Below are positions 1 to 53,026 of a stretch of DNA of 64,000 nucleotides, in pieces (the stretch's first letter is position 1; every line of letters starts with the position of its first letter). The position numbers and the translations under genes were made by a program. Origin of the DNA: Candidatus Omnitrophota bacterium (lineage in GTDB: Bacteria > Omnitrophota > Gorgyraeia > JAHJTE01); the NCBI GenBank assembly GCA_040753675.1, contig JBFMEB010000003.1, positions 1,715 through 65,714 of the forward strand, in the 5' to 3' direction. Under the pieces are notes generated by a model, which was given only the letters and a program-made list of their open reading frames with translations, made no database searches and was not told the origin of the DNA.

Positions 1-385
1 TATTTCCAATTTTCGAAAATAGATTTAGAGCAGAATTGACCAGCGCTAAGTCTTCCTGCAACGCAGCAATATCTTTGCCTTTTGGCTCGCCTTGGTGCTC
101 CACGTGTAAAAGCCCCAGCAAACGCAAGTGCTTTACTGTAGCCTCTGCATCACTTGAGCGCACAATAATTGCTACTTTTTTCATCGGTACAATCATGTTA
201 AATGAGCACATAACTTACGGAGCCATTGTTTTACCTTAGCGACGTAAGTTATAAGTGCGAATTTAACCCAGCACTTATTTTACTAAAAAGCTGGGTAGTA
301 AAAATTAAGATTTTATTCGAAGAAAATTTATTTTATTTCAACTTAAAGCCTGGCAGTAAAATAAGTGCTGGGTAAGTTCAGCCAA

Positions 386-2311: not shown

Positions 2312-4070
2312 CTATAATCTCACTTTCAGATTTAATCTTTTCCTTTTCTGTAGCAATAATTTCTTTTTCAATGGCTTTAAATTCTTCTGATTGCCAGGGG
2401 CTTGAATTCCAACCTCGAAAAAGCTGCCTTAAGCTCTGGAAAAAGTGCAAAGCCTCTTCTTTGCTATCAAGTTTAAATTCTTGCTCTAAAATGTTTTGGT
2501 AGATAAAATTAAATGTATATTTTTGCCTTTCTTCGGATGTCGCCTCATCAACTGGGTCAAATGCATTCTGCTGCAGATAAACAAAATCAAAAAACTCACC
2601 CTTTAAATAATCTATGTAATCCGCTAAAGATGTTCCTTCTTCTCCCACAACCTTCATCATCTGCGCCACGTCAAAACTTTTTCGTAAGATTTCATGGCCT
2701 TTTTTTGCCTGTCTCTCATCTATAAAACTCTTATATTTGCTCCAGCTTATCAGTGGATCAATGGCAGGATAACGCCTTGCATTTGCGCGTTGGTTTGATA
2801 ATCCATGAAATGCGCCAACTACTTTTAAGGTGGCCTGGGTAACTGGCTCATCGAAATTTCCTCCAGCAGGGCTTACTGTCCCACCAATAGTTACAGAGCC
2901 CATTGAGCCGTCGTGTAATTTAACAATGCCGGCCCGTTCATAAAAAGAAGCGATGCGCGACTCTAAATAAGCAGGGAATGCCTCTTCACCGGGTATTTCT
3001 TCTAAACGGCCTGACATCTCGCGCATTGCCTGTGCCCAACGAGAGGTTGAATCTGCAAGAAGCAAAACATTTAATCCCATTTGTCGGTAATATTCGGCAA
3101 TTGTTACAGCAGTATAAACTCCTGATTCTCGTGCTGCTACTGGCATAGAACTGGTATTACACATTATCACTGTACGGTCACTCAAGGGTTTATTTGTGCG
3201 CGGGTCAATCAAATGCGGGAATGTTTTAAGAGTTTCCACTGCCTCACCTGCCCGCTCGCCGCATGCAGCAACGACAACAATGTCTACCTCAGCGTGGCGG
3301 CTGGTTAATTGTTGTAGCACAGTTTTACCAGAGCCAAATGGTCCTGGGATACAAAAGGTTCCACCTAAGGCAACTGGAAACAAGGAATCGATTAATCGCA
3401 TTTTGGTAACTAAAGTGCCCTGGGGTTTTAATTTTTCAGCATACGCAGAAATAGGAACCTTGACTGGCCAAACTTGTCTTAAAAAAACTTCATGAATCTT
3501 TCCCTGTGCATCTTTTAACTTTGCAATCGCTTGTTCTAAATTATATCTTCCTGGATTTGCTATCTGGACAACTTCAAGATTGCCCTTTAAGCTAAAAGGC
3601 GCCATAATAAAGTGCTTAAAAATCTTCTCTGGAACAAAGCCTAATTTTGCTCCGGCAAAAACAAAATCGCCAACTTTAGCAATAGGCGTAAAATCCCACT
3701 CGCTTTGTGAAGGAAGCGCCTGGATATAAACACCCCTTTTTAAAAAGAAACCATGATCTTTAGCCAAATCTGGCAAGGGATTTTGTAAGCCATCAAATAT
3801 CTGGCCTAAAAGACCAGGCCCGAGTTCTACGCAAAGAAGCTCTCCCGTAAACTCCACTTCTTCTCCTACTTGAAGGCCAGAGGTATTTTCAAATACCTGC
3901 ATCTCAGCCTGCCTTGCGCGAATTCGTATAACCTCAGCTTTTAGCTGCTCTTTGCCATGCAAGACAAAAGCAACCTCATTCTGAATTATATTGTCCTCTG
4001 TTTGCGCAGATACCATATTGCCAATAATTTTTGTAATCCGGCCTTCCCTTTTCTCTCTCATATTCATCAA
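2304..4070 (-). CDS. atpA: V-type ATP synthase subunit A (catalytic)
   Basis: 588 aa with Walker A GPFGSGKT and a non-homologous insert region typical of V/A-type A subunits. Confidence 0.9.
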
Positions 4071-4074
4071 CCTT

Positions 4075-4602
4075 TCAATGCACCTTTAAGGCTTCTTCTA
4101 AAACTTGCTTCTTATCCGAGATATTGATTCTTTCCCAACGCTCTAAAATCAACAATTTAAGGCAATAGATAATTAAAAAATCTAAATCAAAATAATGACC
4201 AAAACAAAAGTCATCTAAGGCCTGCCATCTGGCAAGGTCTAAAATTTTTTCTGCCTCTAAGATAGATGAACTGCGCAAAGCAGTTATGGCAATATTGGTA
4301 ATAAACGCTTCTGGAAATCTATCCTTGCGCAAATAACGGCCAGGGTCGATATGCATTCGTTGGGCACGGTTCTTAACCAATTCATTTCTTAATGTGCTAT
4401 CAAAATCCTGCCATTTTTTTAGGGTAGCTTGGACAATAGTAGAGTAATCTCCTGAAATCGAGAGCTTTTTTAGAATCTGGATATCAGCATCAGGAATAAA
4501 TCTCTGACAATATATAATAAATTCTTTAAAACTAAAAGGAGGCTTTGTGCCAAACTGAAGAGAAGGCAAACTCGAAATTAAATAAGTATAAAAATAGGAC
4601 AT
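4075..4602 (-). CDS. hypothetical protein embedded in V-ATPase operon (possible accessory subunit)
   Basis: 175 aa ORF between the E and A subunit genes. No recognisable motif, so the call rests on position only. Confidence 0.3.
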   Translation of the reverse strand: MSYFYTYLISSLPSLQFGTKPPFSFKEFIIYCQRFIPDADIQILKKLSISGDYSTIVQATLKKWQDFDSTLRNELVKNRAQRMHIDPGRYLRKDRFPEAFITNIAITALRSSSILEAEKILDLARWQALDDFCFGHYFDLDFLIIYCLKLLILERWERINISDKKQVLEEALKVH

Positions 4603-4610
4603 TGCGTCTA

Positions 4611-5207
4611 CTATTTTAATAGTTTAGCTAATTCTGGTTTAAGATATTGACTGATGTAGTCTGCCAGTGCCTCTTCGGTAAAATCAAAATGCGATTTACC
4701 CTCATCAAAACTAATAAGAAACCCCGCACTAATATCTTCTGATGATTTAAGGGTAATTTCCTTTTTTATCTCTTGTTTTAATTGTGCTAAAAAACCTTTT
4801 TCTAATTTCTCTACATCATCCTTATTGAGCGAAATTATAATATTGCCTTTGTTCTGTTTGGCTGTCTCAATAATAAGTGAATGTAAAATTTTAGATAGTA
4901 AAGCTGGGGTGAGCGTCTCACGGGCTGATAAAAGCACAATTTTATCAAGTAGGGAATTTATTTCTTCTTTTAAACTAATAAGCATGTTTCTTCCTGCCTG
5001 TTTGAGGGCGCTCTTTGAGGTATCTTGCATTTTATTGATTTTTTCTTGAGCCTCGCCAATCAGTTTTGCGCTTTGTGTTTTTGCGTTATTAATAATTTGC
5101 TCTGCGAGCTCTTTAGCCTCCATTTCAATTCGGCGCGCCTTGTCTTCGGCAACTTTAATGCCTTCATTCTGAATTTTTGCTATTAAATCTCTAATTTCCT
5201 CTGCCAT
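4611..5207 (-). CDS. atpE: V-type ATP synthase subunit E
   Basis: 198 aa charged, coiled-coil-rich protein that is the first gene of the operon. Similar to V/A-ATPase E stalk subunits. Confidence 0.6.
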   Translation of the reverse strand: MAEEIRDLIAKIQNEGIKVAEDKARRIEMEAKELAEQIINNAKTQSAKLIGEAQEKINKMQDTSKSALKQAGRNMLISLKEEINSLLDKIVLLSARETLTPALLSKILHSLIIETAKQNKGNIIISLNKDDVEKLEKGFLAQLKQEIKKEITLKSSEDISAGFLISFDEGKSHFDFTEEALADYISQYLKPELAKLLK

Positions 5208-7624: not shown

Positions 7625-8287
7625 TCAATATTTAAATTTGCCAGATGATAAATGTAAATGCTTTATATCAATTATTTCTTTAGGTTTACTGAAATCCCAG
7701 CGTTCAATTTTTCTGTCGTCAAATATAAAGATTTGAAGCGATTCATCATTAACTACCTGAAAAATCAGCCACTTATCAAAAGATAATCTTATATCAAGTG
7801 GCACTTCAGGTGTATAGCGATTTGGAGAAAAACTTACCTCATATTCATGTTCGCCTTCTCGACATATTGTTATTACTTTATACGCGAATGCTGATTTTAT
7901 TTTGTCTTCATACTGCTTATAAATTGGAAGATTCTCAATAAAGTTAATTAATTTCTTGACGTCGCTAATGGTACGAAAATTACGATATATTATATACGAG
8001 CTGTTCGCTCTTAGTGAAATAAACAGCGGATATATATTCCCCTTTTGACTCATAATATCAATATAAGCTAAGCTAATGAAATATTCATCCCCCTCTTTCG
8101 AACAACCATGGATACTAGTGTTAAATGTATTTAGATTAGCACCTATGGCAATCTGAAAGCGATTTTCTAATTGAGATGGGCAAGGCACAAAAGGTCTATC
8201 TGCAAAAGCATAATTCAGTGAATAATAAGTCAATAAAATAAATAAAAAACTTAGAAATAATATCTTTCTCATTTGCTTACTTCTCAA
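7625..8287 (-). CDS. secreted hypothetical protein
   Basis: 220 aa with an N-terminal signal peptide and several Cys residues. Confidence 0.4.
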   Translation of the reverse strand: MRSKQMRKILFLSFLFILLTYYSLNYAFADRPFVPCPSQLENRFQIAIGANLNTFNTSIHGCSKEGDEYFISLAYIDIMSQKGNIYPLFISLRANSSYIIYRNFRTISDVKKLINFIENLPIYKQYEDKIKSAFAYKVITICREGEHEYEVSFSPNRYTPEVPLDIRLSFDKWLIFQVVNDESLQIFIFDDRKIERWDFSKPKEIIDIKHLHLSSGKFKY

Positions 8288-8360
8288 TTATCCCAAGCCT
8301 AAAAGTCAAGCAGGAAGTGAACCCTTGACATCTTTGATGTCAAGGGTGAGTTCGGACAAA

Positions 8361-8393
8361 ATAACTTATGTTCACTTACGTTCCATAAGTTAT
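8361..8393 (-). terminator. ATAACTTATG-type palindromic hairpin 9 nt downstream of the glycosyltransferase gene
   Basis: ataacttatg-13 nt-cataagttat. Confidence 0.35.
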
Positions 8394-34863: not shown

Positions 34864-36390
34864 ATGGATTTACAAAAAAGAACTTTTATCGCTGTTGTAT
34901 TATCTATTGTAATAATAATTATCTATTCTTCATGGGTTTCTAAATTCTATCCTACTGTAAATAAAGAAGTTATAGAAAAATCTTCAATTACTTCTTCAGG
35001 CGAGACTGTAGCGCAGCCGCAGACTGCTAAAGTAGCTCCACCACAAAAAGTAAAAACTCAGACAAACCCGCCTCTTATCCAATATGAGACTGAAAAAGTA
35101 ACTTATAAATTTACTCCACTTGGAGGAAATCTAATTTCAGCGAGATTTAAAGATTATGCATATGAAGCTCCGGCTCTTGCGTTGTTGGCAATCCAAGAAT
35201 GGCAGGATTTGGAATTTTCTCATGAACTCGGGCCTGAAGAAGCAGTTTTTAGATATAAAGATGCTAACAAAGAGATTACTAAGCAATATAAATTTTCAGA
35301 AAAAGGATATTATATTAATTTTGAGATAACTTATAATAACTTAACTTCTTCTGCCGCAAGCTGTTACTATAATTTTAATTTGGAATTTAAACATTCTCCT
35401 GCTGAACGATACAGAGATACAGTAGTGTTCTTTAATGATAGTAACTTGCTCTATCTAAATAACTTACGAAATAAACCAGGATTTATTAGGGAGCTTAATA
35501 AGTCAATAAAATGGATTGGGTTACGTGACAAATATTTTGCCTACATATTAAGCCCTATTTCTAACAAAAATGAATTAGGCAAAATTGAGAAAAGCCTTGA
35601 TGGGTCAGACATATTGAGTCTGCATCATAAAGATGAGGCCATTAGTGCAGGCTCGATGCAGACTGCCTCATTTTTGTATTACTGCGGCCCGCAAATTGAT
35701 AATTTGTTAGTAAAATCAGGCGTTGGGTTTGAGTACATTCATAATTTTGGGAAATTAGATGTTTTTGTTAAATTATTGTTAAAGACTTTAATAAATATAA
35801 ACAAATTTGTGCATAATTGGGGAGTTTCCATTATTGTGCTGTCTGTTGTTATTTATTTATGCCTTTATCCGTTATCGCTTAAGTCGATGCGATCAATGAA
35901 AAAGATGCAAGTTCTCCAACCAGAAGTTGAAAAAATAAAACAACAATATAAAAATGATGTTCAGAGGCAAAATAAAGAGGTTATGGAGCTTTATAAGAAA
36001 CACAATTATAACCCCTTAGGCGGATGTATGCCTATGTTATTACAACTTCCGATATTCTATGCTTTGTTTTTAGCTTTATCCAGAGGGATTGAATTTAAAG
36101 GTGCTAATTTCCTTTGGATAAAAGACCTGTCAGAGCCAGACAGGTTCCCCATATTTGCTGGAAAGCACATTAATATATTGCCTATTTTGATGATTATTGC
36201 TATGTTTTTCCAGCAAAAGATGTCAATGTCCAATTTACCAAGTTCGCAAAGCGAGCAACAAAAAATGATGTTATGGATGATGCCCGCTCTATTTGGCATT
36301 ATGTTTTATAATATGCCTTCAGGCCTGGTATTATATTGGGTTTTAAACAGCAGTTTAACCATGGTAAGTCAATGGAAAGCATTGAAATAG
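34864..36390 (+). CDS. yidC: membrane protein insertase YidC
   Basis: 508 aa with an N-terminal TM plus periplasmic domain and the C-terminal five-TM YidC/Oxa1 core. Confidence 0.85.
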   Translation: MDLQKRTFIAVVLSIVIIIIYSSWVSKFYPTVNKEVIEKSSITSSGETVAQPQTAKVAPPQKVKTQTNPPLIQYETEKVTYKFTPLGGNLISARFKDYAYEAPALALLAIQEWQDLEFSHELGPEEAVFRYKDANKEITKQYKFSEKGYYINFEITYNNLTSSAASCYYNFNLEFKHSPAERYRDTVVFFNDSNLLYLNNLRNKPGFIRELNKSIKWIGLRDKYFAYILSPISNKNELGKIEKSLDGSDILSLHHKDEAISAGSMQTASFLYYCGPQIDNLLVKSGVGFEYIHNFGKLDVFVKLLLKTLININKFVHNWGVSIIVLSVVIYLCLYPLSLKSMRSMKKMQVLQPEVEKIKQQYKNDVQRQNKEVMELYKKHNYNPLGGCMPMLLQLPIFYALFLALSRGIEFKGANFLWIKDLSEPDRFPIFAGKHINILPILMIIAMFFQQKMSMSNLPSSQSEQQKMMLWMMPALFGIMFYNMPSGLVLYWVLNSSLTMVSQWKALK

Positions 36391-36554
36391 AGGGTAAAAA
36401 CCCAGAATCAGCTATAAGAAAAGCTCTTAAGATCCTTAATGTTGCGCGCAAAGACGTAGAGATTAAAATACTGTCTGAAGAGAAAAGGGGCCTTTTTGGC
36501 ATGGAAGGCGGCAAGCCGTCCAGGGTCAGAGTGACTGTAATTAAGAAAAAATAG
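36372..36554 (+). CDS. small Jag-N/KH-like RNA-binding protein (truncated Jag/KhpB?)
   Basis: About 60 aa starting MESIEIEGKNPESAIRKALKILNV. Its position after yidC is where jag normally lies, but the Jag KH and R3H domains are absent. Confidence 0.3.
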   Translation: MESIEIEGKNPESAIRKALKILNVARKDVEIKILSEEKRGLFGMEGGKPSRVRVTVIKKK

Positions 36555-36605
36555 TTGATTTTGCTTAAGATCCCTCGGCAGAGCTCGGGATCAAGCAAAA
36601 TCTAA
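36555..36605 (+). terminator. long perfect-stem hairpin downstream of the jag-like gene
   Basis: gattttgcttaagatccc-tcggcagagctc-gggatcaagcaaaatc, a 16-17 bp stem. Confidence 0.45.
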
Positions 36606-36756
36606 GCGCCAGAGACAGATTTTGCTTGACACTTTTGTTTAATTTGCTATTATAATTGCATAAATTATTTAAGTATTCAAGGCAGGTGTTTCACGGGAAA
36701 ACGTTTCAATTGAAACATTTTCATGTGGAACATTATTATGATAGCAAATAATTAAA

Positions 36757-37206
36757 ATGTTAAATCCATGGTTTGTTACGGGTTTTTGCGCTGGCGAGGG
36801 AGCTTTTACTTATAGTCGGCAAGGAGAAAATTTTAATTTATACTTTGCTGTTAAATTAAACCAAGACGAGGAAGAGATTATTATACAACTACAAGATTTC
36901 TTTGGGGTAGGAACAATTTATAAAATCAAAGCAAGCCCTCCAAAAAGATACAGCGGTTTTACACAACCAGCTTTATATTATAGAGTTAGTAAGATTCCGG
37001 AATTAGAAAGAATTGTTGAACATTTTGATGAATTTCCTTTGATAGGTAAAAAACTAAAATCTTACAATATTTGGCGAGCAATGTTTGAAGAGAAAAAGAA
37101 GTTTCGCAAGCCCGATAATATTAAACTAGAAGCATTCGCAATGTCTCTTTCAAACTTAAGCAATAAGAATGCTAAATTAAGGCTGTCGAAGCAAATTGAT
37201 GGCTAA
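36757..37206 (+). CDS. free-standing LAGLIDADG homing endonuclease (single-motif type)
   Basis: 149 aa. WFVTGFCAGEGAF is a LAGLIDADG motif with the catalytic acid, in an I-CreI-like size class. Upstream lies TTGACA-17/18-TATAAT-like promoter sequence. Confidence 0.7.
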   Translation: MLNPWFVTGFCAGEGAFTYSRQGENFNLYFAVKLNQDEEEIIIQLQDFFGVGTIYKIKASPPKRYSGFTQPALYYRVSKIPELERIVEHFDEFPLIGKKLKSYNIWRAMFEEKKKFRKPDNIKLEAFAMSLSNLSNKNAKLRLSKQIDG

Positions 37207-37984
37207 GATTATAACTATTTGCAATCAAAAGGGCGGCACAGGCAAGACAACAACAGCCATTAACCTGTCAACTTATCTTGCTGTTGCAAATAAAAAAGTG
37301 CTATTGGTGGATATAGACCCTCAAGGCAATTCTACCAGCGGCATAGGCATAGATAAAAATTCCTTAGAGTTTTCTATATATCATTGCCTGCTCGGCCAAA
37401 ATAAATTACAAGAGGCAACAAAGAAGACTTCTGTTTCTAATTTGGATATTGTGCCGTCTAATGTAGATTTAGTTGGCTTAGAAGTAGAATTGGCCAACGT
37501 AGAAAACAGGGAATTCAGATTACGAGAAGCGATTGCTCCGATAAGGGAAGTTTACGATTATATTTTTATTGATGCTCCGCCGTCGTTAGGTTTACTTACG
37601 CTTAATGGCCTTACTGCGGCGGATTCTGTTTTAATCCCGCTTCAGTGTGAGTATTATGCTCTCGAAGGGCTTTCCCAGCTTTTAAAATCAATAGAATTAG
37701 TTAAACAAGCACTTAATCCTTATTTGGTGATAGAAGGTGTTTTATTAACTATGGCAGATTACAGAACTAATTTAACCCAGGAGATAATAAGGGAGGCAAG
37801 AGAATTTTTTAAGGATAAAGTTTTTCAGACAATTATTCCAAGGAATGTCCGGCTTAGTGAGGCGCCGAGTTTTGGCAAGCCGGTTTTATTTTATGATAAA
37901 AATTCTCTGGGTGCAAAAATGTACGAATCATTAGCCAAGGAATTTTTAGGCCAAAATTTATCACAACTAATTGAAAATAAATAA
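37196..37984 (+). CDS. parA: chromosome partitioning ATPase ParA/Soj
   Basis: Deviant Walker A KGGTGKTTT. Confidence 0.9.
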   Translation: MMAKIITICNQKGGTGKTTTAINLSTYLAVANKKVLLVDIDPQGNSTSGIGIDKNSLEFSIYHCLLGQNKLQEATKKTSVSNLDIVPSNVDLVGLEVELANVENREFRLREAIAPIREVYDYIFIDAPPSLGLLTLNGLTAADSVLIPLQCEYYALEGLSQLLKSIELVKQALNPYLVIEGVLLTMADYRTNLTQEIIREAREFFKDKVFQTIIPRNVRLSEAPSFGKPVLFYDKNSLGAKMYESLAKEFLGQNLSQLIENK

Positions 37985-38029
37985 GATACAGTAATTAATA
38001 GTGATTAGTAAAAAACAATTAGTTTTAAA

Positions 38030-38132
38030 TGCAAAAATCAAAGTGCAAAAATCAAAATGACAATGTAAAATTTAAAATTTTTGAATTTTTATATGTAATT
38101 TTGATATTTAATTTTTGATATTTGATTTTAAT
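38030..38132. repeat. AT-rich AAAATGACAATG-core palindromic repeat (copy R2)
   Basis: Nearly identical to 45736..45836. Core 12-mer at 38054..38065. Confidence 0.7.
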
Positions 38133-38146
38133 TTGAGAGGAATATT

Positions 38147-39010
38147 ATGGTTAATAAGGTATTGGGAAGGGGCTTGGCAGCTTTAATTCCGGAAAAAACA
38201 AAGACTGTAACAAAGGCATCTCTGGAAATAGACAATATTGATATTGGTCAGATAAAATCAAGTTCTTATCAACCGAGGGAAAGTTTTGCCGACGATAAAT
38301 TAACTGATTTAGTCGCCTCAATAAAGGAGAAAGGTATTTTACAGCCGCTGATAGTGCGTAAAACTAGTGGCGGCTATGAATTGATTGCTGGGGAACGCAG
38401 GTTGCGGGCAGCCAAGATATTAAAATTGCCGCAGGTTCCTGCAATTATCAAAGACGTAGACAACAAGGGCTCTTTAGTTTTGTCCATAATTGAAAATATT
38501 CAGCGCGAACAATTAAATGCCATAGAAGAGGCGCATGCTTTTAAGCGGCTGATTAACGAATTTAATCTTTCTCAGGAGGATGTTGGTAAGGCAGTGGGCA
38601 AGGACAGGGTAACTGTTTCAAATACCTTGAGGCTTTTAAACCTGCCGAAAGAAATCCAGGAACAAGTAAGCAAGGGGAAAATTACCCAGGGCCATGCCCG
38701 GGCATTATTGGCCTTAGGAGAGACAAAGGAGCAGATTGAGTTCTTTGAAAAAATTTTAAAAGACTCATTAAGTGTAAGAGAGTTAGAGCGCTTAATCCAG
38801 GAAAGTCCAAAGAGAAAGAAGTCAAGTCAGGCTTTGGCAGCAAAGAGAGCCAGAAAAGATCCTCATGTCTTGGCAGTAGAAGAAGAATTGCAACACAAAA
38901 TCGGTTCGAAAGTACGCATAAATATAAACAAGAAAAACAAAGGTACCATCGCTATTGAATTTTATAATTTAGAGGATTTAGAGCGTATTGTGGAGCTATT
39001 GAAAAAATGA
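38147..39010 (+). CDS. parB: chromosome partitioning protein ParB/Spo0J
   Basis: ParB box GERRLRAAK, an HTH and a C-terminal dimerisation domain. Confidence 0.9.
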   Translation: MVNKVLGRGLAALIPEKTKTVTKASLEIDNIDIGQIKSSSYQPRESFADDKLTDLVASIKEKGILQPLIVRKTSGGYELIAGERRLRAAKILKLPQVPAIIKDVDNKGSLVLSIIENIQREQLNAIEEAHAFKRLINEFNLSQEDVGKAVGKDRVTVSNTLRLLNLPKEIQEQVSKGKITQGHARALLALGETKEQIEFFEKILKDSLSVRELERLIQESPKRKKSSQALAAKRARKDPHVLAVEEELQHKIGSKVRININKKNKGTIAIEFYNLEDLERIVELLKK

Positions 39011-52807: not shown

Positions 52808-53026
52808 TTATCTTAAGCCCTTGCAATTTTGTTGTCGCTATGATATACTTACTCTGCGAATATAGCCCTGCAGTGTTCGTTGGATAGATTGGATATTTTT
52901 TGAACCAACACAATCTTAAAGGGAGCTCGACTTCATCTGTGCTTGCGGGCAGGATGAGAGGCGCCCACGTGTAACAACAACGGTTCAGATTGCCCTATCC
53001 GACGACACAAGCGGGGTTTTTTATTT

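Follow-up and report, generated by a model that had tools for sequence, protein, structure and literature searches.

A LAGLIDADG protein gene and an adjoining parS-like array at the head of a chromosome-partition operon in Omnitrophota

The LAGLIDADG gene and its surroundings

The window analysed here, a 64-kb stretch of DNA from an Omnitrophota bacterium, carries a small gene for a LAGLIDADG protein (LAG) directly upstream of the chromosome-partition genes parA and parB. The genes and signals of the locus are the following.

36372..36554, + strand: Jag_N-only gene (Pfam Jag_N, E = 8.6e-17)
36557..36602, + strand: imperfect hairpin, −25.4 kcal/mol, z = −2.85, without a T-tract
36626..36653, + strand: sigma-70-type promoter of the LAG-parA-parB operon, 11/12 consensus matches
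36687..36732, no strand assigned: three overlapping parS-like 16-mers with a 15-bp period, forming a 46-bp palindrome in the 5' leader between promoter and ORF
36757..37206, + strand: gene for a single-domain LAGLIDADG protein, an uninterrupted ORF of 149 aa
37199..37984, + strand: parA (Soj-type ATPase), its ATG inside the last LAG codons
38147..39010, + strand: parB, an ORF whose orthologues carry the Pfam labels ParB_N/HTH_ParB

The first-pass annotation of this DNA had described the reading frame as a free-standing, single-motif LAGLIDADG endonuclease gene between a jag-like gene and parA. This placement is borne out by Pfam, which assigns Jag_N upstream and ParA downstream, and the frame indeed encodes an intact single-domain protein of 149 residues (N-terminus MLNPWFVTGFCAGEGAF) with the catalytic glutamate present. 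The match to the LAGLIDADG_1 profile (PF00961), which had been proposed as a check, is clear (E = 3.8e-13, 50.6 bits versus a cut-off of 23.1), and the alignment spans profile positions 2–100 of 102 (99/102). The only other Pfam match up to E = 1 is a weak one to DUF1835 (E = 0.14). No NCBIfam model matches the protein, and PHROGs and PADLOC return generic endonuclease matches only. The protein was also considered as a member of the ParB/Noc proteins, which was rejected since Pfam detects neither a ParB_N nor an HTH_ParB domain.

Sequence matches in the PDB are to the N-terminal domains of I-OnuI-type enzymes, with E-values down to 3e-17. The AlphaFold2 model of the 149-residue protein (41 homologues) has a pLDDT of 89.8, and its order of secondary-structure elements agrees with that of the LAGLIDADG_1 family. 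The best Foldseek matches of the model are I-OnuI, I-CpaMI, I-AabMI and the homodimeric I-TnaI, with TM about 0.7 and a probability of 1.00 for I-OnuI, I-CpaMI and I-TnaI. The motif reads VTGFCAGEG, and because it aligns as V-T-G-F-C-A-G-E-G the catalytic position falls on Glu14; Lys99 is also kept, as are all residues that are invariant in the family. By sequence, fold and catalytic residues, the ORF is classed as a member of LAGLIDADG_1, and its product is predicted to be a functional single-domain LAGLIDADG protein that, by family precedent, would form a homodimer. With one motif per chain, the protein would be expected to dimerise on a palindrome of about 22 bp.

The gene stands outside any intron or intein, as had been claimed. 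Rfam returns nothing relevant at gathering thresholds for the whole window, and a more permissive search of the flanks, suggested earlier as a check for intron structures, gives no fit in 35800..38200 at E ≤ 10. Family precedent speaks for an intron- or intein-encoded gene, a decaying pseudogene or a chance ORF, but such an origin is barely credible for a frame that is intact, retains every family-invariant residue, and lies between two complete genes with no host ORF and no fitting intron RNA family around it.

The promoter is composed of a −35 hexamer TTGACA (36626..36631), a 16-nt spacer and an extended −10 element, TG-n-TATTAT, ending at 36653; in the window, the jag stop codon lies some 70 nt upstream of it. 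A homologous TTGACA/GATAAT promoter is found at the equivalent position in the LAG-positive and LAG-less relatives inspected, and in the LAG-less species inspected it drives parA directly, with a −35 hexamer that often overlaps the jag stop codon. The promoter-like site that had been taken for the gene's own therefore exists, but as it is common to LAG-less relatives it belongs to the parAB operon and not to the LAG gene. The hairpin had been read as a strong terminator that insulates the gene from yidC and jag. This does not hold: the hairpin is stable but lacks a T-tract, is not scored as a terminator, and is seen in the window only, no counterpart having been seen in L007 or the other loci read. 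A third copy of the hairpin 13-mer (AGATTTTGCTTGA, 36617..36629) overlaps the −35 hexamer.

At its other end, the LAG gene runs into parA. The LAG stop codon TAA (37204..37206) overlaps the parA start by 8 nt (ATGGCTAA, 37199..37206), an arrangement that is typical of translational coupling, and overlaps of 1–13 nt (TAATG or ATGGGTAA) occur in most other LAG-positive loci read. ParB, the product of the next gene, would be expected to load at parS-type sites. Both the LAG/parA overlap and the parS-like array had been overlooked in the earlier reading of the sequence.

Distribution and age in Omnitrophota

A protein identical to LAG is annotated in a Candidatus Omnitrophota MAG. A YidC-anchored search retrieved 80 species-representative Omnitrophota loci with yidC-jagN-parA-parB synteny. 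The LAG gene is present in 13/80, always between jagN and parA, and homologues down to 46% identity are found in an identical gene context, the shared order being dnaA< rpmH yidD yidC jagN LAG parA parB ndk yicC gmk rpoZ. Loci that lack the gene and reach parA have a spacer in its place, mostly of about 80–130 nt, and no gene remnants were found in 63 such empty spacers. LAG-positive species are scattered on a host tree built from four proteins, and there are pairs of sister species, one with and one without the gene, whose flanking DNA is about 88% identical. The distribution requires a minimum of 11 Fitch state changes on this tree, which is indistinguishable from random placement (p = 0.21); such random-like placement also suits a mobile element.

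The jag gene is of the Jag_N-only form, 59–72 aa, in 72/80 loci, with or without a LAG gene; the remaining 8/80 gave no jag match, two of these being cut off by a contig end. Truncation of Jag by an insertion was considered and rejected, since Jag is Jag_N-only wherever it is detected in Omnitrophota, LAG-positive or LAG-less; the short form is therefore a trait of these genomes and not insertion damage. No residues in ParA or ParB were found that discriminate LAG-positive from LAG-less hosts. As the gene is missing from about 84% of related species and no ParA or ParB residue co-varies with it, any host function must be dispensable.

The gene is under purifying selection, with dN/dS of 0.08–0.19 (about 0.1) for close LAG pairs, and two pairs in which the catalytic residue is lost do not differ from active-type pairs in this respect (0.13 and 0.18). 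Distances between LAG sequences follow those between hosts (Mantel r = 0.81, and 0.54–0.64 once the dominant pairs are dropped). The smallest between-species p-distance of LAG, 0.20, is found in the closest host pair, and there are no near-identical copies in divergent hosts. Degraded copies are likewise absent, all those read being uninterrupted ORFs, some of them cut by contig ends. The flanking parA follows the species tree, without a clear signal of co-conversion between LAG-positive lineages; jag identity does drop, which weak constraint on jag explains equally well. A phage collection contains no family member, and a plasmid collection yields two weak matches only, at about 30% identity, neither of them a true member. 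In the window itself, a 27-nt pair of terminal inverted repeats is significant (z = 6.9), but it is absent from 51 other loci and is therefore not part of the anatomy of the family.

The first-pass annotation had suggested that the gene is either domesticated or recently inserted, and had proposed that the yidC-parA region of related genomes be compared for its presence or absence. The comparison does reveal a polymorphic site, with the gene in 13 of the 80 species, and domestication stays a live possibility; recency is contradicted by the divergence of the orthologues. A promoter-like site and a hairpin upstream, together with the rarity of free-standing LAGLIDADG genes in bacteria, would fit a homing endonuclease gene that arrived recently, has a promoter of its own and is insulated by a terminator from yidC and jag. 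Against this, the promoter pre-exists in the LAG-less relatives inspected, the hairpin has neither a T-tract nor counterparts in other loci, and orthologues occupying this site share as little as 46% identity. Because LAG tracks host distances, lacks recent or degraded copies, has a host-like composition (GC 0.33 versus 0.34–0.45 in neighbouring genes) and is constrained at dN/dS of 0.08–0.19, a recent insertion is very improbable. The gene appears to be an old, selection-maintained and optional first gene of the chromosome-partition operon. Like a mobile homing gene, it is present or absent at one site; residence in an intron or intein, or demonstrable mobility, is not seen.

The parS-like array and the wider family

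The 5' leader of the operon in the window contains three overlapping units that resemble parS, whose canonical sequence is TGTTTCACGTGAAACA. The units are TGTTTCACGGGAAAAC at 36687, CGTTTCAATTGAAACA at 36702 and ATTTTCATGTGGAACA at 36717, and they form a gapless palindrome with 23-nt arms that are 83% complementary (fold z = −4.96). Elsewhere in the 64-kb window, there is no canonical parS within two mismatches except for a marginal two-mismatch match at 96..111. Over 44 Omnitrophota loci, the array has the consensus TGTTCCgCGTGaAAAtGTnccanntggAACAtTT.

Two alleles of the parA upstream region can be distinguished. The LAG-positive allele has the promoter, an array with the consensus aaTGTTCCgCGTGaAAAtGTnccanntggAACAtTT (44 loci), a short leader and the LAG ORF, which abuts or overlaps parA. 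Its array retains the two outer canonical half-sites with 15 extra bp between them, and a third unit is present in some loci, including that in the window. In the LAG-less allele of the species inspected, the promoter is followed by a single perfect or near-perfect parS-type palindrome, e.g., aTGTTCCGCGTGGAACAt, then by a conserved leader of about 21 nt (TAACTATAA..CA) and the parA ATG. As a single palindrome is found without the gene and an array with it, the parS element co-varies in form with the LAG gene. The alleles could be interconverted by two small deletions, one of a 15-bp period and one of the ORF, or by allelic replacement.

The association between array and gene extends beyond this site. 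A parS-like 16-mer, defined by at least 13/16 matches to parS, lies within 130 nt upstream of the gene in 81% of 74 loci compared with 1.1% of background windows, figures that overstate the evidence since the Omnitrophota loci are not independent samples. The same architecture is seen in genomes of 51–66% GC and in other gene contexts, and all wider-family loci inspected have two or three parS-like units with 15-bp spacing that lie beside the 5' end of the gene or overlap it. The conserved unit is thus the parS-like array together with the LAG gene in origin-proximal ParB/parS neighbourhoods. We propose that the array is the cognate site of the LAGLIDADG dimer and/or a ParB loading site.

The wider family was delineated by a scan of metagenomes with the family alignment, which gave 80 loci, and by a profile search of 1.84 billion cluster representatives, which gave 75 clusters at E ≤ 1e-30 and 1,465 at E ≤ 1e-10. 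Most close relatives lie directly upstream of parA. Distant members are found in genomes of 33–68% GC and in other gene orders, and it is from this GC range and the gene order alone that a spread to other phyla is judged. The distant contexts include the following.

mnmG-LAG-parA-parB
rsmG, LAG on the opposite strand, then cca-parA-parB, with 30 nt between the divergent starts
yidC-mnmE-mnmG-rsmG-LAG
jag-mnmE-bioFAD-LAG followed by UDG-rsmG (bioD-LAG)
cca, LAG
a phage-like contig with LAG-x-ParB, in which LAG precedes a 635-aa ParB_N/HTH_ParB protein

Residue conservation was computed over 209 distinct family sequences. The catalytic position is occupied by Glu or Asp in 71% and by another residue (C, S, A, Q, L, G, H, R, V, T, N or I) in 29%, and one entire clade in which this position is C, S or R is conserved down to 56% identity. 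Residues of the β-strands are much better conserved than the catalytic one (F17 and Y55 100%, T18 99%, F30 98%, R76 97%, S20 and R21 90%), and H89-F90-D91, P94, K99 (94%), W106 (100%) and the C-terminal L..LA..LS helix are also highly conserved. In ordinary homing endonuclease families the opposite is expected, i.e., a variable DNA-reading β-sheet and a constant catalytic residue, and I-OnuI-like outgroup sequences do vary at the β-strand positions that are conserved in the LAG family. A conserved β-sheet combined with a variable catalytic residue points to one conserved DNA target and to a function that persists once cleavage is lost. The parS-like array, conserved in the catalytic-dead clades too, is the one conserved sequence that accompanies the gene. 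These features set apart what is apparently an undescribed, distinct family of LAGLIDADG proteins of about 150 aa; no literature was found on the family or, apart from WhiA, on any connection between LAGLIDADG proteins and parS or ParB.

Possible roles at the partition site

We regard it as an evenly balanced proposition that the protein is a homodimeric, site-specific DNA-binding LAGLIDADG protein, nuclease-competent in the window, which acts on the parS-like array at a ParB loading site. For this proposal we infer dimerization, binding of the array, an effect on ParB or on transcription, and cleavage. LAG would be a long-resident and dispensable first cistron that is read from the promoter of the operon and whose translation is coupled to that of parA, and its dimer would bind the array sequence-specifically through the conserved β-sheet surface. 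From there, between the promoter and the first cistron and at the likely ParB loading site, the bound dimer may control its own operon and/or the loading and spreading of ParB at the centromere site. Members with the catalytic glutamate, including the protein in the window, may in addition cut the parS/promoter allele that LAG-less relatives have in its canonical, unexpanded form; gene conversion would then copy the cassette of array and gene, which would explain the patchy distribution. Retention of the glutamate and Lys99 in most members, that in the window among them, is not predicted by a pure DNA-binding role, and the array might serve ParB alone, as an operator.

The gene could instead be a purely selfish, still-active, free-standing homing endonuclease gene with no host function, its homodimer cutting the canonical palindromic parS/promoter allele and repair copying the degenerate array with the gene; the degenerate array would confer immunity on its carrier and perhaps act as an auto-operator. 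Glu14 and Lys99 are kept here and a catalytic acid is present in about 71% of the family. The gene is cleanly present or absent at one site, even between sister species with flanks about 88% identical, and its distribution on the host tree resembles random labels. The two discrete alleles, array with gene or single palindrome with the conserved TAACTATAA..CAATGGG spacer, fit such a cycle as well, and a 16-bp palindrome conserved across bacteria would make an ideal target for a homodimer. A perfect parS lies nearby in 0/64 active-type loci; among catalytic-dead ones the count is 1/14, and the difference is not significant (p = 0.18). However, LAG distances about equal host distances, neither near-identical copies in divergent hosts nor decaying copies or remnants were found, and the flanking parA gives no clear signal of co-conversion between LAG-positive lineages. 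Furthermore, catalytic-dead lineages persist at dN/dS of 0.13–0.18, a whole dead clade is conserved and has kept its array, and the parS-like site is not interrupted by the gene. On balance, a purely selfish gene is possible but rather improbable.

Still less likely is that the array serves only as a ParB site or operator while the LAG protein targets other DNA or, like a maturase, RNA, its place beside parS being due to co-regulation by ParB or to a tolerated niche near the origin. Consistent with such an arrangement, the array units resemble weak natural parS sites (14–15 of 16 matches), ParB is conserved without LAG-specific changes, and the array lies in the transcribed leader, where it folds as a strong RNA hairpin (z = −4.96). 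What argues against it is that the form of the array changes with the gene, a single palindrome being found in LAG-less loci, and that the array stays with the gene in contexts without parAB within 8 kb. The β-sheet conservation across phyla, as judged above, further implies one target, and the array is the only conserved sequence nearby.

A broader reading, less likely than not, is that a LAGLIDADG family is dedicated to parS as its cognate target, in a homing and/or an accessory form that perhaps differ by lineage. In the homing form, the endonuclease would home into the near-universal palindromic parS at the parAB promoter and leave behind an expanded parS array that it cannot cleave. In the accessory form, LAG would be a new ParABS factor that, on the modified parS array, gates the loading or sliding of ParB or the transcription of parAB.

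Compared with I-CreI, I-MsoI, I-TnaI and the N-terminal domain of I-OnuI, the protein in the window shares the LAGLIDADG_1 match, the fold, the catalytic glutamate and the conserved lysine. It differs from these enzymes in that its gene lies outside any intron or intein, as a coupled cistron of a housekeeping operon beside a parS-like array. The family differs from homing endonucleases in general in that its β-sheet residues are conserved across phyla and 29% of its members lack the catalytic acid under purifying selection. A parallel in terms of biology is WhiA (DUF199), also a bacterial protein of the LAGLIDADG fold, which has been kept for a non-homing role and is linked to cell division and chromosome segregation. 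[quoted passage not shown] Identity with WhiA was rejected on these grounds, and since Pfam matches LAGLIDADG_1 and weakly DUF1835 only, there is no match to a WhiA family.

Additional site-specific DNA-binding proteins that work beside a ParB-type protein on parS-like sites have precedents in KorA/KorB and Noc, which are small or paralogous DNA-binding partners of proteins of the ParB family; the likeness of the LAG protein to them is a functional analogy only, with no relationship in sequence or fold. Among LAGLIDADG proteins, WhiA is a domesticated regulator of Gram-positive bacteria (PMC3384342), and in S. coelicolor it was reported to bind a parAB promoter in vitro (PMC3781837). I-TevI represses its own gene through an operator, and HO is a free-standing LAGLIDADG protein, retained by its yeast host, that cuts one chromosomal locus (PMC3384342). 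They provide precedents for a target-like site that adjoins an endonuclease gene and for host retention; I-TevI is, however, a GIY-YIG phage enzyme and HO is eukaryotic and intein-derived, and neither has any connection with partition genes in an operon or with a centromere-like site.

Few chromosome segregation systems of bacteria are as widespread as ParABS, and few known non-coding DNA elements are as conserved as parS. If the proposal is correct, the LAG family would be either an unrecognised player at the bacterial centromere or the first selfish nuclease that homes into a centromere. Either way, it would represent a second domestication of a LAGLIDADG protein in bacteria, independent of WhiA, and one caught in mid-transition, in which some members are still competent for catalysis and others are dead. 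A further gain would be compact meganuclease scaffolds that are homodimers by nature and have a defined palindromic target. The array can also be recognised in sequence databases, where many ORFs starting with METFSRGT or KHFHVKQS are translations of array DNA (GAAACATTTTCACGTGGAACA-type).

ParB-binding sites near the origin

In the 64 kb around dnaA and parAB, a search allowing at most two mismatches returned no canonical parS beyond the degenerate array at 36687..36732, which lies between the promoter of the operon and the single-domain LAGLIDADG gene (LAG), and a marginal match with two mismatches at 96..111. The degenerate array may be the sole ParB loading site near the origin of this genome. 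In a deep-branching Omnitrophota clade without LAG (L053, L065, L068, L084 and L085), a perfect TGTTTCACGTGGAACA lies within parB, at roughly +1315 to +1536 counted from the start of parA, and the promoter-proximal parS is missing in most members. This layout resembles that of B. subtilis, in which a parS is located inside spo0J.

A short Jag protein and repeats flanking the promoter and LAG

Three features of the window frame the operon promoter and LAG:

36336..36554, Jag/KhpB homologue with the Jag_N domain only, downstream of yidC
36556..36629, 13-mer repeat of the GATTTTGCTTGA type, three copies
36736..36762 and 37204..37230, inverted repeat of 27 nt (81% complementary, z = 6.9 against shuffles)

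Of the 80 Omnitrophota loci with yidC-jag-parA-parB synteny (L007–L086), 72 encode a Jag/KhpB homologue that comprises the Jag_N domain alone (59–72 aa) and lacks the KH and R3H domains; the remaining eight gave no jag match. Both KH and R3H are retained in the high-GC relatives L169 and L176.

The 13-mers occupy an insert of ~70 nt that separates the jag stop codon from the promoter. Two of the copies build the hairpin at 36557..36602, and the third (36617..36629), a perfect complement of the second (36591..36603), overlaps the -35 hexamer. The insert was seen neither in the closest relative, L007, nor in other loci that were read; it could be the site of a regulator or a short repeat that inserted here. 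The arms of the 27-nt inverted repeat, separated by 441 nt, place the leader and start of LAG opposite the first parA codons. This repeat is confined to the window, being absent from 51 other LAG-parA loci; its arms may pair at long range in the mRNA, with an effect on parA translation.

Other arrangements of the locus

On a phage-like contig (L167, 5001..7893; also L168) carrying Sipho_Gp157, an MT-A70 methylase and sigma-70 region 4, a catalytic-dead LAG family member with Gln at the catalytic position is followed by a 160-aa ORF and a 635-aa ParB_N/HTH_ParB protein, and two parS-like units cover the LAG start. At the LAG-less locus L072, a GC-rich insert of ~410 nt (7870..8282), preceded by a perfect GTTTCCACGTGGAAAC palindrome and without similarity to the LAG family, separates jag from parA. 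In a high-GC lineage (L137, L144 and L169; about 2700..4970), the genes of a cca-parA-parB operon overlap or abut one another; the first of them encodes a CCA-adding enzyme/poly(A) polymerase-family protein (PolyA_pol and HD domains), transcribed divergently from LAG at a distance of only ~30 nt. The N run and duplicated parA start directly after LAG in the public contig of L057 (about 8240..8390) are an assembly or scaffolding artefact.

RNA genes in the window

52862..53021, + strand, 6S RNA (Rfam RF00013, 53.7 bits)
13092, 24901, 41736, 42640 and 42857, five tRNA genes
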